In this document: positions 1,550 to 4,423 of the stretch, piece by piece
Position numbering within the stretch: position 1 is the first letter of the stretch
How the letters are laid out: each line of letters starts with the position of its first letter
Origin: a virus
Taxonomy: Duplodnaviria; Heunggongvirae; Uroviricota; Caudoviricetes
Direction: 5' to 3' (one strand)
Length of the DNA stretch: 4,423 nt
IMG/VR virus record: IMGVR_UViG_2531839239_000021
Notes under the pieces: model-generated
The model's database searches: none
What the model saw: only the letters and a program-made list of their open reading frames with translations
Told to the model about the DNA's origin: nothing
Translations under genes and position numbers: made by a program

Positions 1550-1766
1550 GGCTACCTCATCTGGTGCCGAACCTTCCTCCGGATATAATCTGTGGTTCCC
1601 AATCGACAGAACCAGAGGAGGTTCGACATGTATTTTTTGAAAAGCCTTTATCAGGCTCATGTATTAAATGTTGCAGCAACAAACCGCTGGTGTAACAGCC
1701 CCGAAATGCTCCCGGATTACAGAGCCTGGCTGCGCGCCGAAACATACCTTCGTCTCGACATATTGA

Positions 1767-2276
1767 TTAGCGAACTTCAAAAAGAGACTGCATCCATTCA
1801 TAACCTTCAGGGTATCGACGCTGTTCGCATTCTGGTATCGCGCCATAGTGCTCTCTCAATAATTGAAGTGCGTCATCTCTCTTTTTCTGAACTGATTTTC
1901 TTGCTTCAACCAGCTCTGGAATCAGCGAATATCCCGCCGGAAGTGATCCAATACCCACCTCATGTTGACGAGCAGTTACAAGATGTGCCATACAACCAGC
2001 GTGCTGGATTGACTCCCTGCTCAGAGGCTGAATGGGATCACTCTCTGCTGAAGAAATACCAAGATTTGTATAATCCTCAATAAGCCCGGCACACGCTTCT
2101 GCATCAGCCAGCTTTATTCTGGTTTCCTTGCGCTGTTCTCTGGCTGACAAACGCCAGAGCAGCGCATTAGCTTTATGTATCAACCACTCTGCCAGCTCCA
2201 CATCAGATAAACCGCCACGCCAGATGTGCGGACTGTTTTCGTAAACGCTCAGTGTCAATTTTTTGTCATTACTCAT
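1767..2276 (-). CDS. Hypothetical protein, 169 aa, between the YdaT-like gene and the replication initiator
   Basis: Minus-strand ATG at 2276 (MSNDKKLTLSVYENSPHIWRGG...), 13 nt after the YdaT-like stop, with a weak GGGT upstream; the track's GTG at 2327 would overlap the YdaT-like gene by 38 nt. Co-directional with the flanking operon. In the first 60 codons about 64% of first codon positions are purines (33% G), which is gene-like. No family recognised. It competes with antisense plus-strand ORF 1592/1628..2083, so confidence is moderate. Confidence 0.55.
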   Translation of the reverse strand: MSNDKKLTLSVYENSPHIWRGGLSDVELAEWLIHKANALLWRLSAREQRKETRIKLADAEACAGLIEDYTNLGISSAESDPIQPLSRESIQHAGCMAHLVTARQHEVGIGSLPAGYSLIPELVEARKSVQKKRDDALQLLREHYGAIPECEQRRYPEGYEWMQSLFEVR

Positions 2277-2289
2277 ATTTATTACCCAA

Positions 2290-2715
2290 TTAATGCACAG
2301 CCAGAGTGTTTCCTGCCGGGCCACCACGATTCATCTGATCGAACAGAACGATCGCTGATGCAACGAAATCATCAATATCTTTCACCAGCCGTTCCTTCGT
2401 CTCTACCAACTCCCGAAAATAAGCGGAACTGTGGCTGCGCATTCGGGCCACCAGCGGAGGCGGCATCGCTTTTTCGATCGCTGGTAACAACGCCTGAATT
2501 TTTTTAACCGCATCAGGAGTGTCTTTCTCCACCCAGCGGAAAATTTTCTGAGTATTGCGAGCCATGGCTTCCGGATGGCTGTCGTCATACAGTTCCGGGA
2601 ACGTCATTCCCAGCTCGAAATACGCTTTGGTAATTTTCGCAGCCGGTACTTTTTCGCCGTCCGGATGCGCCCAGACATTCATCGCCATGCGGATGTGTTC
2701 ATGCTTGATTTTCAT
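2290..2715 (-). CDS. ydaT: YdaT-like protein (Rac-prophage YdaT family; reported as the CII-equivalent of Rac-type switches), 141 aa
   Basis: Minus-strand ORF MKIKHEHIRMAMNVWAHPDGEKV...NTLAVH. The start ATG shares the 4-nt ATGA overlap with the stop of the upstream YdaS-like gene (2715..2712). The N-terminal MKIKHEHI and the position directly after a ydaS-like gene match my recollection of Rac YdaT; family call from memory, not a search. Confidence 0.65.
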   Translation of the reverse strand: MKIKHEHIRMAMNVWAHPDGEKVPAAKITKAYFELGMTFPELYDDSHPEAMARNTQKIFRWVEKDTPDAVKKIQALLPAIEKAMPPPLVARMRSHSSAYFRELVETKERLVKDIDDFVASAIVLFDQMNRGGPAGNTLAVH

Positions 2716-3014
2716 GAATCAACTCCATCAGATAAGCATGCACTACAATCACCTTCAGCATGAACTACATGTGTTTGCCCCAAACGAATGCCGCTCGCAT
2801 ACTCAGGCCAAATAAGCTCCCAATCATGGGGTCGTAGCTCCGCCCTACTTACTTGGCCTTCCGTCGCAGATTCGATCATAAGGGCGCGGGTTGGAGATAT
2901 AGCTGTTCGTCCAGACGCCATTTGCGATAAGTAAGATGGCGATACACCAAGTCTGGCCGCGAATTTCTTAGCATCACCAACCCTTAATGATTTAATAAAC
3001 TCTTTTAATGTCAT
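2712..3014 (-). CDS. ydaS: Cro-like HTH regulator of the YdaS family, 100 aa
   Basis: Minus-strand ATG at 3014 preceded by CGAGGAAGGT (SD). Translation MTLKEFIKSLRVGDAKKFAARLGVSPSYLSQMASGRTAISPTRALMIESATEGQVSRAELRPHDWELIW... aligns with my recollection of E. coli Rac YdaS (LGVSPPSVNQW...AIERATRGEVLCEELRP). Transcribed divergently from the repressor-like gene, as for cro. Confidence 0.8.
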   Translation of the reverse strand: MTLKEFIKSLRVGDAKKFAARLGVSPSYLSQMASGRTAISPTRALMIESATEGQVSRAELRPHDWELIWPEYASGIRLGQTHVVHAEGDCSACLSDGVDS

Positions 3015-3042
3015 ACCTTCCTCGGTTTAGTGTTTTTTTGCG

Positions 3043-3072
3043 AGTTTAGTGTTTAATAAACCATTAAGTCAA
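3043..3072 (-). promoter_or_regulatory. PR-like leftward promoter for the ydaS-like operon, with an embedded 11-bp palindromic operator
   Basis: Minus-strand -35 TTGACT (plus coordinates 3072..3067), 18-nt spacer, -10 TAAACT (3048..3043). The perfect odd palindrome GTTTAATAAAC (3051..3061) lies in the spacer. Predicted transcript start is about 22 nt upstream of ATG 3014. Confidence 0.55.
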
Positions 3073-3076
3073 GTAT

Positions 3077-3105
3077 TTGCTTGTTTAGTGATTACTAAAG
3101 ATAAT
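3077..3105 (+). promoter_or_regulatory. PRM-like rightward promoter for the repressor-antitoxin-toxin operon; predicts a leaderless mRNA
   Basis: -35 TTGCTT (3077..3082), 17-nt spacer, -10 GATAAT (3100..3105). The spacer holds the near-palindrome TTTAGT-GATT-ACTAAA (3084..3099). The -10 ends 6 nt before ATG 3112, and there is no SD upstream of that ATG. Confidence 0.5.
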
Positions 3106-3111
3106 TACCAC

Positions 3112-3483
3112 ATGCAAAAAAAAGAAATTCGCCGTTTACGTCTCAAGGAGTGGTTTAAAGATAAAACTCTGCCACCCAAAGAGAAGAGCTACCTATCTCA
3201 ACTAATGAGTGGGAGAGCCTCGTTTGGAGAAAAGGCTGCCAGAAGAATAGAGCAAACATACGGGATGCCGGAAGGGTATCTGGATGCGGAATACGCAGAA
3301 CAACCGGGGGGTTCTCCACCACATGCAGGGTTAACGTCTAATCAACTGGAATTATTGCAGATTTTTTCAGCCTTCCCTGAGGATGAGCAACGCCAGATAA
3401 TCAGCGAGTTAAAGCAGAAAAAAGAATCAATGGAAGATCTCATAGCGAGATGGATTGCGGCGCAAAAATGCCGCCGCGCCTGA
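3112..3483 (+). CDS. paaR: HTH transcriptional regulator in the CI-repressor position; first gene of a three-component TA operon (PaaR-like), 123 aa; the track's GTG at 3049 is a possible but less likely start
   Basis: ORF MQKKEIRRLRLKEWFKDKTLPPKEKSYLSQLMSGRASFGEKAARRIEQTYGMPEGYLDAEYAE... Divergent from the cro-like gene and followed within 20 nt by the antitoxin and ParE genes. Contains the motif SYLSQLMSGR, which is also present in the YdaS-like protein. The paaR name is my recollection of the E. coli O157:H7 paaR-paaA-parE systems and is not verified. Confidence 0.7.
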   Translation: MQKKEIRRLRLKEWFKDKTLPPKEKSYLSQLMSGRASFGEKAARRIEQTYGMPEGYLDAEYAEQPGGSPPHAGLTSNQLELLQIFSAFPEDEQRQIISELKQKKESMEDLIARWIAAQKCRRA

Positions 3484-3503
3484 GTTATAAAACCGGAGGA
3501 AAC

Positions 3504-3695
3504 ATGAATAGAGCCCTTTCACCAATGGTTTCTGAATTTGAAACCATTGAACAAGAAAACAGTTACAACGAATGGCTGCGTGCGAAAGTAGCAACGAGCC
3601 TTGCAGATCCGCGCCCAGCAATTCCCCATGACGAAGTTGAGCGCAGAATGGCAGAACGCTTTGCTAAGATGCGCAAGGAACGGAGCAAGCAGTAA
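3504..3695 (+). CDS. paaA: Small antitoxin of a ParE-type toxin-antitoxin pair (PaaA-like), 63 aa
   Basis: ATG 3504 preceded by GGAGGA (3495..3500). Translation MNRALSPMVSEFETIEQENSYNEWLRAKVATSLADPRPAIPHDEVERRMAERFAKMRKERSKQ. The TAA stop (3693..3695) is 1 nt before the toxin ATG. Size, charge pattern and position immediately upstream of a ParE-family gene fit an antitoxin. The track ORF 3450..3695 includes an unlikely N-terminal extension. Confidence 0.8.
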   Translation: MNRALSPMVSEFETIEQENSYNEWLRAKVATSLADPRPAIPHDEVERRMAERFAKMRKERSKQ

Positions 3696-3696
3696 A

Positions 3697-3975
3697 ATGT
3701 TACCCGTGTTATGGCTTGAAAGCGCAGATACCGACCTAGATGATATAACTAGTTATATTGCTCGTTTCGACATAGATGCGGCTGAACGCTTATGGCAGCG
3801 ATTAAGGGGTTGTGTGCTGCCGTTATCCGAACATCCGTATTTATACCCACCAAGCGACAGAGTACCTGGCTTGCGTGAGATTGTAGCCCACCCTAACTAT
3901 ATAATTCTATACCGCGTAACAACATCAAGCGTTGAAGTAGTAAACGTGATCCACGCAAGACGCCAGTTTCCCTAA
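3697..3975 (+). CDS. parE: ParE/RelE-superfamily toxin (ParE-like), 92 aa
   Basis: ATG 3697. Translation MLPVLWLESADTDLDDITSYIARFDIDAAERLWQRLRGCVLPLSEHPYLYPPSDRVPGLREIVAHPNYIILYRVTTSSVEVVNVIHARRQFP has the ParE/RelE hallmarks (W..A..DL..I..YI, GLREI, YRV, V.NVIHARR). The track ORF 3601..3975 begins at an upstream ATG inside the antitoxin gene and is not the likely start. Confidence 0.88.
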   Translation: MLPVLWLESADTDLDDITSYIARFDIDAAERLWQRLRGCVLPLSEHPYLYPPSDRVPGLREIVAHPNYIILYRVTTSSVEVVNVIHARRQFP

Positions 3976-3993
3976 CTTTCACTACCAATAGAA

Positions 3994-4039
3994 ACATAAC
4001 AACCGCAACGACTTTATCAAAAGCGTTGTGTTTGTTATG
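3994..4039 (+). terminator. Imperfect 16-bp inverted repeat downstream of the toxin gene; candidate weak terminator or protein-binding site
   Basis: CATAACAACCGCAACG (3994..4009) and CGTTGTGTTTGTTATG (4024..4039) are reverse complements apart from two positions (one a G-U wobble in RNA), with a 14-nt loop. The stem is A/T-rich and no clean U-tract follows, so terminator function is uncertain. Confidence 0.3.
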
Positions 4040-4056
4040 TCCCGCGGTTTAGTTTT

Positions 4057-4096
4057 TACTTGACTTAAGTTTAATGTTTATTAAACTAAAAATACC
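4057..4096 (+). promoter_or_regulatory. PL-like rightward promoter/operator unit, an inverted copy of the PR-like unit at 3041..3075
   Basis: -35 TTGACT (4060..4065), 16-nt spacer, -10 TAAACT (4082..4087). Palindrome GTTTATTAAAC (4076..4086) overlaps the -10. The 12-mer TACTTGACTTAA (4057..4068) is identical to the minus-strand sequence at 3064..3075; GTTTAGT at 4047..4053 and ACTAAA at 4085..4090 echo the half-sites of the 3024..3099 region. Confidence 0.5.
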
Positions 4097-4423
4097 AACC
4101 CACCCCGCCCCACAGAACGCAGGGAAATACTTCGAGTTACCCGGCAGTGGTCAGGGGTTAAGTAGCCAGCCCGAGGCGTATGAACATGACGGCAGGGTTC
4201 AACTTTAATAACTATGCAGCAGTTTTTTGTTCCGCTACCCCGGCGTTAAGGGGAAACAGAGGGTTTCTCAGTGGGCGAAGTCAAACATCAGAATGGAAGG
4301 CATCCCGGGATCGGCAAAGAAGCAGCAATGGCGCTTTATATTGACATCAGCGCCATTGCAGGACAGGTAAGAGTTATCAGAGCGGTAACTAAGCGGTATG
4401 CGCCTTTACTTCAGAAAGTCTCT

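Follow-up and report, generated by a model that had tools for sequence, protein, structure and literature searches.

The described system closest to the locus analysed here is paaR2–paaA2–parE2, a three-component toxin–antitoxin (TA) system of Escherichia coli O157:H7, which was named in 2010 (Hallez et al. 2010 Mol Microbiol 76:719) and whose lambda-like wiring and analogy to cI–rexAB were published in 2021–2023 (PMC8630535; PMC9986795). The first of the later studies (Jurenas et al. 2021, mBio, PMC8630535) dealt with exactly this locus in the cryptic prophage CP-933P; the second (Prolic-Kalinsek et al., Acta Cryst D 2023, PMC9986795) places paaA2–parE2 where lambda carries rexA–rexB, and PaaR2 in the place of CI. 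In both accounts PaaR2 is the analogue of CI, YdaS that of Cro and YdaT that of CII, and crystal and NMR structures of the proteins of the system have been solved. The DNA studied here is a stretch of 4,423 nucleotides from a tailed phage of the Caudoviricetes (IMG/VR record IMGVR_UViG_2531839239_000021), referred to throughout as the window. Its right-hand part very probably carries this same paaR2–paaA2–parE2 type II TA operon, lying inside the immunity region of a lambdoid E. coli prophage of the CP-933P/Sp12 type, with PaaR2 acting as a CI-like repressor; from the published data we infer an addiction role. The locus has already been published, operator level included, and the replacement of rexAB by paaA2–parE2 is also in print; the reading of the cassette is not new. 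The initial annotation, made from the sequence alone, had thus recovered a regulatory model already published, which carries little weight as a discovery, the system being known and its structures and lambda-like wiring being available.

Identity and organization of the cassette

At the nucleotide level, window positions 2566–4423 show 100% identity with the CP-933P-type locus of O157:H7 strain TR01, and the segment 2700–4260 is 100% identical in many O157:H7 chromosomes; at least 80% of that segment is present in one place in 593 of 5,426 complete E. coli genomes. The labels that RefSeq gives the three cassette genes go no further than 'hypothetical protein', 'RelB family antitoxin' and 'RelE/ParE family toxin'. 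At the protein level, ParE2 is 100% identical over 92 residues to PDB 5CW7 chain B and 5CZE ('Plasmid stabilization protein ParE'), PaaA2 is identical to the protein in 3ZBE, 5CW7 and 5CZE, residues 1–66 of PaaR2 are identical to 7NKV and 8C3K (named 'Phage repressor protein CI' by the depositors), and YdaS is 100% identical over 100 residues to 8C7K ('Phage antirepressor protein Cro'). Since all four match O157:H7 chains in full over these regions, and since the DNA of 2566–4423 matches TR01 without a difference, the identification of the locus is near-certain.

Profile searches agree with these assignments. ParE2 matches the Pfam family ParE_toxin (PF05016; 60.9 bits against a cut-off of 23, E 1.9e-16), its residues 4–91 spanning profile positions 1–89 of 89, and the only Pfam match of PaaA2 is the family of that name (PF21217; 70.7 bits against a cut-off of 27, E 1e-19). 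The prediction of a 63-residue antitoxin followed by a 92-residue ParE-family toxin is borne out by both profiles and, for the RelE/ParE fold of the toxin, by the exact PDB matches. YdaS matches Pfam YdaS_toxin, HTH_3 and, weakly, P22_Cro, in keeping with the cro-like divergent gene that had been postulated next to the cassette, and YdaT matches Pfam YdaT_toxin (E 1.2e-9) as well as PDB 8BT1 and 3C4R (E about 1e-83).

The tightly packed rightward operon described in the initial annotation is found as predicted (Table 1). All three genes lie on the plus strand, with paaR2 directly upstream of paaA2–parE2; the paaR2–paaA2 gap of 20 nt contains a GGAGG Shine–Dalgarno sequence ahead of paaA2, and the paaA2 stop codon (TAA, 3693–3695) is separated from the parE2 start codon (ATG, 3697–3699) by a lone A at 3696, a gap of 1 nt. 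Some annotators start paaR2 at a GTG at 3049, giving a protein of 144 residues; this start was rejected in favour of the ATG at 3112, on which the published N-terminal sequence MQKKE, obtained by protein sequencing, and the start mapped by 5′ RACE agree (PMC8630535).

PaaR2 has no match to any Pfam family at E ≤ 0.01, hence no S24 peptidase domain of the kind that mediates autocleavage in CI and LexA, and the lack of a peptidase motif is also noted in PMC8630535. PaaR2 is therefore a functional analogue of CI and not a member of the CI family, and without an autocleavage domain it is not an SOS-cleavable, SOS-inducible repressor open to RecA-mediated induction. Its residues 72–119 (window 3325–3468) resemble the C terminus of DicA (NCBIfam NF007257) with an E value of 1.4e-6, though the score falls short of the family cut-off. 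It is this part of the protein that is conserved with the paralogue PaaR1, which suggests a shared oligomerization module placed under different DNA-binding heads.

Two promoter–operator units flank the cassette

The hallmarks of a lambdoid immunity region are present in the window: repressor and cro-like genes that diverge from a shared operator region, back-to-back promoters within it, three GTTTAGT repeats in OR, and a second operator–promoter cluster, OL/PL, beyond parE2. A consensus scan gives PR and PL identical hexamers (TTGACT/TAAACT), both promoters being directed outward from the cassette. The window has four exact copies of GTTTAGT, at 3025, 3044, 3083 and 4047 and nowhere else (chance expectation 0.45; none of 200 shuffles gave four), and a fifth member of this repeat family lies at 4069. 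The repeats are thus confined to the two units, as expected from the earlier proposal that two copies of one promoter–operator unit bracket the cassette. A perfect 12-nt inverted repeat, TTAAGTCAAGTA/TACTTGACTTAA, also joins 3064–3075 with 4057–4068; by itself it is only modestly unusual, repeats of at least 12 nt being found in 11 of 300 dinucleotide-preserving shuffles, and the case for two operator units is made by the features taken together and by the published footprints, not by this repeat alone.

The published experiments bear directly on the same DNA. Four 18-bp inverted repeats with the half-site consensus GTTTAGTAA are set at equal distances in the 97-bp region between ydaS and paaR2, on which PaaR2 and YdaS both footprint over PRM and PR, as seen by electrophoretic mobility shift assays and DNase I protection (PMC8630535). 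The promoter PL933P has −35 and −10 hexamers identical to those of PR, and is accompanied by three OL operators; PaaR2 and YdaS lower its activity about 100-fold, and green fluorescent protein reporters show that PaaR2 represses PR and PL and that, at low level, it weakly activates PRM (PMC8630535). Binding of the regulator to the flanking DNA, which the initial annotation had proposed as an experiment, is accordingly already on record for OR, together with repression of both outward promoters. The paaR2 messenger RNA is leaderless (PMC8630535), and the sequence agrees with this model in that 3112 is preceded by no Shine–Dalgarno sequence and the −10 hexamer GATAAT ends six bases ahead of the paaR2 ATG; for the −35 there is no candidate but a weak TTGCTT. 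YdaT is the activator of a PRE-like promoter (PMC8630535), and its operator has been footprinted as TTGATT-N6-AATCAA at the location where an exact match is found in the window (PMC9986795).

Between the parE2 stop codon and OL lies a long imperfect hairpin whose predicted RNA fold has an energy of −24 kcal/mol (z = −4.07; none of 200 shuffles folds as well). It has no T-run after the stem, the terminator scan made no call at 3994–4040, and the sections of PMC8630535 consulted make no mention of it. By analogy with lambda t_imm, the hairpin is likely to serve as the end of the operon transcript or as a 3′ stabilizer.

A probable immunity-specific segment that includes the head of PaaR

Comparison with the paralogous paaR1-type locus of O157:H7 genomes places these operators in a wider frame. 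As far as position 2726 the loci are almost identical; from 2727 to 3417 (6227–6915 in the paaR1-type record), a block that comprises ydaS, OR and the 5′ two-thirds of paaR encoding the part with the N-terminal DNA-binding domain, they have no detectable nucleotide similarity; and from 3418 through paaA, parE and beyond they align at about 70% identity, rising to 95% over 4094–4256, just past PL. A dissimilar block with alignable flanks is what is classically seen at a heteroimmune 'imm' segment, which argues that the N-terminal domain of PaaR would set immunity specificity and would not merely regulate the TA genes; modules of the paaR1 and paaR2 types are expected, from this alignment, to be heteroimmune. 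The flanks of the block would permit exchange of the whole immunity-plus-TA module by homologous recombination.

These observations bear on the possibility that PaaR2 is only the detached DNA-binding half of a TA module inserted in the prophage, controlling its own operon and nothing else. The idea was raised by the authors of PMC8630535 and gains something from the frequency of helix-turn-helix domains among antitoxins and from the missing CI autocleavage domain. However, PaaR2 footprints over PR as well as PRM, and both PR and PL, a promoter some way off, are repressed by it although the TA genes are transcribed from neither, so that published work already contradicts the idea; PaaR2 forms CI-like octamers (PMC8630535); downstream of parE2, at a distance of about 1 kb, there is a further set of operators; and the head of paaR, like ydaS and the operators, has no detectable nucleotide similarity between the paralogous prophages. 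We consider it highly improbable. That the regulator is at once TA regulator and prophage maintenance repressor, as had been suggested from the sequence, is the published conclusion for an identical sequence (PMC8630535), and the cI–rexA–rexB slot assigned to the cassette is the one stated in PMC9986795.

Function of the cassette

According to PMC8630535, the work of Hallez et al. (2010) established the operon structure, repression by PaaR2, Clp-dependent turnover of PaaA2, nucleoid localization of ParE2 and induction of the SOS response; neutralization of the toxin by the antitoxin and post-segregational killing were likewise shown experimentally with an identical sequence (PMC8630535, citing Hallez 2010). 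PaaA2 is degraded by ClpXP and ClpAP (PMC8630535); it has no DNA-binding domain and wraps around ParE2, so neutralizing it. The cassette is transcribed in both states of the switch, the locus is bistable with a heritable state, as followed in single cells, and the region ydaST-RAE2 stabilizes a mini-F plasmid as efficiently as does ccdAB (PMC8630535).

Combined with the sequence identity of the window, these published experiments establish the following mechanism. A leaderless transcript from PRM yields PaaR2, which binds the GTTTAGT-type operators in OR (3015–3111) and OL (about 4046–4096), represses the outward promoters PR (ydaS–ydaT) and PL and, at low level, stimulates its own promoter. 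YdaS, as the Cro analogue, competes for the PaaR2 sites, creating a heritable bistable switch. YdaT, as the CII analogue, binds TTGATT-N6-AATCAA at the ydaS/ydaT border and turns on an alternative promoter of the operon. Because PaaA2 is labile towards ClpXP and ClpAP, loss of the locus frees ParE2, which is found on the nucleoid, provokes the SOS response and kills the cell by post-segregational killing. We infer that addiction is the natural role, the cassette stabilizing the immunity module of the prophage against loss or recombinational replacement.

Several points weigh against this assignment. Single cells show no ParE2 activity, judged by SOS induction, in either transcriptional state; the authors call the natural role an open question; and stabilization was demonstrated on a mini-F plasmid, not on a chromosomal prophage (all PMC8630535). 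PaaR2 has no S24 autocleavage domain and CP-933P itself is defective. Finally, the window is a recombinant whose crossover, described below, lies only about 50–160 bp from the immunity-specific segment, so recombination beside the cassette does happen, the cassette itself being intact.

The target of ParE2 is probably a topoisomerase. The initial annotation called ParE toxins gyrase poisons, a generalization from the family that cannot safely be extended to this member. Poisoning of DNA gyrase through GyrA, as by RK2 ParE and Vibrio ParE2, would fit the family membership and fold of ParE2, its co-localization with the nucleoid and the SOS induction that follows its overexpression, and the authors of PMC8630535 themselves expect interference with a topoisomerase. 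However, ParE2 is reported neither to bind GyrA59 nor to inhibit gyrase (2016 J Mol Biol 428:1589), and according to PMC8630535 its precise target is still to be uncovered. The classical gyrase mechanism is thus conceivable for ParE2, and we regard it as rather doubtful.

A second possible use of the toxin is suggested by an isolated coliphage. Phage Evi (LR597642.1, 5013–6276) carries the ydaS–paaR2–paaA2–parE2 region at 98.3% identity. Its paaR2 and paaA2 are intact, with GG replaced by EI at residues 67–68 of PaaR2 and one K to R change in PaaA2, and an intact parE2, absent from the annotation of the record, encodes an identical protein of 92 residues. Defective prophages are therefore not the only carriers of the cassette. 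In live temperate phages such as Evi, paaA2–parE2 could be a true functional replacement of rexAB, providing abortive infection or exclusion from the lysogenic transcript, besides addiction or instead of it: an infecting phage would deplete the labile PaaA2, for instance through Clp degradation or the shut-off of host functions, and the cell would be killed by the freed ParE2 before progeny are released. The position of the cassette and its co-transcription with the repressor are those of rexAB, the antitoxin is labile via ClpXP and ClpAP, the cassette is transcribed in both switch states, an isolated temperate coliphage carries it intact, and many type II TA systems are known to defend against phage (PMC10440598). 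On the other side, none of the three cassette proteins has a match in PADLOC-DB and homology to RexA or RexB is absent; the words exclusion, superinfection and abortive infection do not occur in PMC8630535, and no test of exclusion was found in the papers examined from a literature search pairing PaaA2 with anti-phage defence. We judge such a Rex-like function unlikely, whether stated for the cassette in general or for live phages such as Evi; with the same low probability, it is the only reading that retains some novelty. If it were true, the two paralogous PaaA/ParE pairs would, through their specificity, also police heteroimmune cassette exchange between co-resident prophages. Addiction remains the role that we prefer.

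Mosaic structure of the window

The left part of the window has a different origin. Positions 1–2674 contain a gene for a DnaC-like loader, an O-like gene, the ECs1072-family gene and the 3′ end portion of ydaT, and they match the prophage bearing the paaR1-type cassette at 100% identity; positions 2566–4423 being those of CP-933P at 100% identity, the crossover falls within the shared stretch of 109 bp at 2566–2674, inside ydaT. Both parental prophages are co-resident in O157 genomes. In consequence, ydaT is a hybrid, its 5′ part of the CP-933P type and its 3′ part as in the paaR1-bearing prophage, and the encoded protein differs from YdaT of CP-933P at 19 residues and from that of the paaR1-bearing prophage at one. 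The hybrid YdaT failed as a marker of the junction, the same protein also adjoining paaR1-type cassettes in three other records.

Among the complete E. coli genomes in the collection, none matches the whole window at 99% or more. Over its full length it agrees at 99.95–99.98% with two independent draft assemblies (strains with the window include those of GCA_012098325.1 and GCA_012558605.1), and the same order of modules recurs at lower identity in a 139-kb contig (98.9%) and in the complete genome TK3046 (97.7%). An assembly chimera, which keeps a low probability for the short-read drafts because the shared stretch measures only about 109–160 bp, was rejected as the main explanation on the strength of these two full matches and two further occurrences of the module order. 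From these comparisons the mosaic arrangement is most likely genuine, and the window is most likely a natural recombinant in which the immunity cassette of CP-933P has been joined to the replication module of the paaR1-bearing prophage. With its distance of some 50–160 bp from the immunity-specific segment, this junction bears in a small way, and not decisively, on whether the cassette constrains recombination of immunity regions.

The paaR1- and paaR2-type prophages have the same relative orientation in some complete O157 genomes (for example FDAARGOS_293, strain 155 and PA20) and opposite orientations in others (for example CDC#03-98 and strain 10671). These differences are consistent with large inversions of the chromosome segment between, or including, the two prophages, and the reported proneness of Sp12 to inversions (PMC8630535) fits the occurrence of either orientation.

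Other features of the window

The coordinates of the cassette, its control sites and neighbouring genes are collected in Table 1. The O-like replication gene contains (G/A/T)AAGCCCCTT five times, with a spacing of 11 nt, in two clusters, 1078–1109 and 1345–1365, about 260 bp apart (chance expectation 0.33; none of 200 shuffles gave five). By analogy with the lambda O gene, these iteron-like repeats may mark the replication origin of the prophage. At 1020–1075 of the same gene, tandem repeats of 18 nt and 24 nt (TCCTGTTCCTGTTCTT) encode a low-complexity linker, QEQEQEKEQEQ, in the O-like protein.

A naive longest-open-reading-frame (ORF) reading of 1628–2327 selects the wrong strand. The minus-strand ORF of 186 residues at 1767–2327 was rejected as a gene, having no family match and overlapping the real ECs1072-family gene. 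Past PL, at 4214–4423, an ORF beginning MQQ(V/F)FVPLPRR is intact in Evi (137 residues); in the window and in O157 it meets a stop at 4247–4249 after 11 codons, and a GTG-initiated frame at 4271 runs off the window end. RefSeq has no annotation at 4214–4423 in TR01.

Table 1. Positions of the cassette genes, control elements and flanking genes in the window.
Feature	Position	Strand	Description
ECs1072-family gene	1628–2083	+	NCBIfam E 2e-30
ydaT	2290–2715	−	CII-analogue activator of PRE; hybrid allele
YdaT primary operator OM	2705–2722	.	TTGATT-N6-AATCAA, exact match TTGATTTTCATGAATCAA, across ydaS stop/ydaT start
ydaS	2712–3014	−	Cro analogue, 100 residues, divergent from paaR2
OR region	3015–3111	.	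97 bp, ydaS–paaR2 intergenic; PR and PRM; same length in published locus
PR	−35 TTGACT 3072–3067; −10 TAAACT 3048–3043	−	consensus scan, N18 spacer
PRM	−10 GATAAT 3100–3105; weak −35 TTGCTT 3077–3082	+	start at A of ATG 3112; hexamers read directly from sequence
paaR2	3112–3483	+	123 residues, ATG; CI-analogue repressor and TA operon regulator
paaA2	3504–3695	+	63-residue antitoxin, no DNA-binding domain; Pfam PaaA2
parE2	3697–3975	+	92-residue ParE-family toxin; Pfam ParE_toxin
Hairpin, long imperfect	3994–4040	+	22-nt arms, between parE2 stop and OL; inverted repeat
OL/PL unit	4046–4096	+	PL −35 TTGACT 4060–4065, −10 TAAACT 4082–4087, N16 spacer; half-sites start at 4047 and 4069

Comparison with known systems

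The paaR2–paaA2–parE2 locus of CP-933P (strain EDL933) and Sp12 (strain Sakai) in O157:H7 is the same locus: it encodes identical versions of the three proteins and of YdaS, and it has the same 97-bp OR, PL/OL and YdaT operator. CP-933P differs only in its left flank, where the window, past the 2566–2674 crossover, has the replication module of the paaR1-bearing prophage, with the ECs1072-family gene, a different O-like gene and a DnaC-like gene in place of those of CP-933P. The paralogous paaR1–paaA1–parE1-type cassette, found in the same genomes and assigned in the literature to CP-933M, has the same gene order and occupies the same slot between ydaS/ydaT and the PL side; its PaaA is 70% and its ParE 67% identical to the proteins of the window, and the C-terminal region of PaaR is conserved. 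PaaR1, however, is a protein of 133 residues with a clear HTH_3 match, whereas PaaR2 has no Pfam match.

More distant relatives share single components. DicA of the Qin prophage of E. coli K-12 occupies the same prophage position (PMC8630535) and shares the C-terminal likeness to PaaR2 residues 72–119, but the match reaches 28 bits against a family cut-off of 101 and the N-terminal domains are unrelated in sequence; a TA pair downstream of dicA is not described in the literature examined. The canonical ParD–ParE systems (RK2 parDE, Vibrio cholerae parDE2, Caulobacter ParDE1, PDB 3KXE) have a toxin of the same Pfam family and fold, and ParE2 gives weak matches to 3KXE, 6X0A, 5CEG and 8C24. They differ in that PaaA2 has no ribbon–helix–helix DNA-binding domain, regulation being left to a separate repressor, and in that ParE2 reportedly does not inhibit gyrase.

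The lambda immunity region has no sequence homology with the locus. PaaR2 lacks an S24 peptidase, the accessory genes are a TA pair and not rexAB, and the three palindromic operators of lambda contrast with four 18-bp inverted repeats and overlapping pseudosymmetric operators here (PMC8630535). Its architecture and logic are nevertheless the same: the repressor gene is leaderless and shares its transcript with two accessory genes, a cro-like gene diverges from it, the operators form two clusters separated by about 1 kb, PR and PL are directed outward, and there is a CII-like activator.

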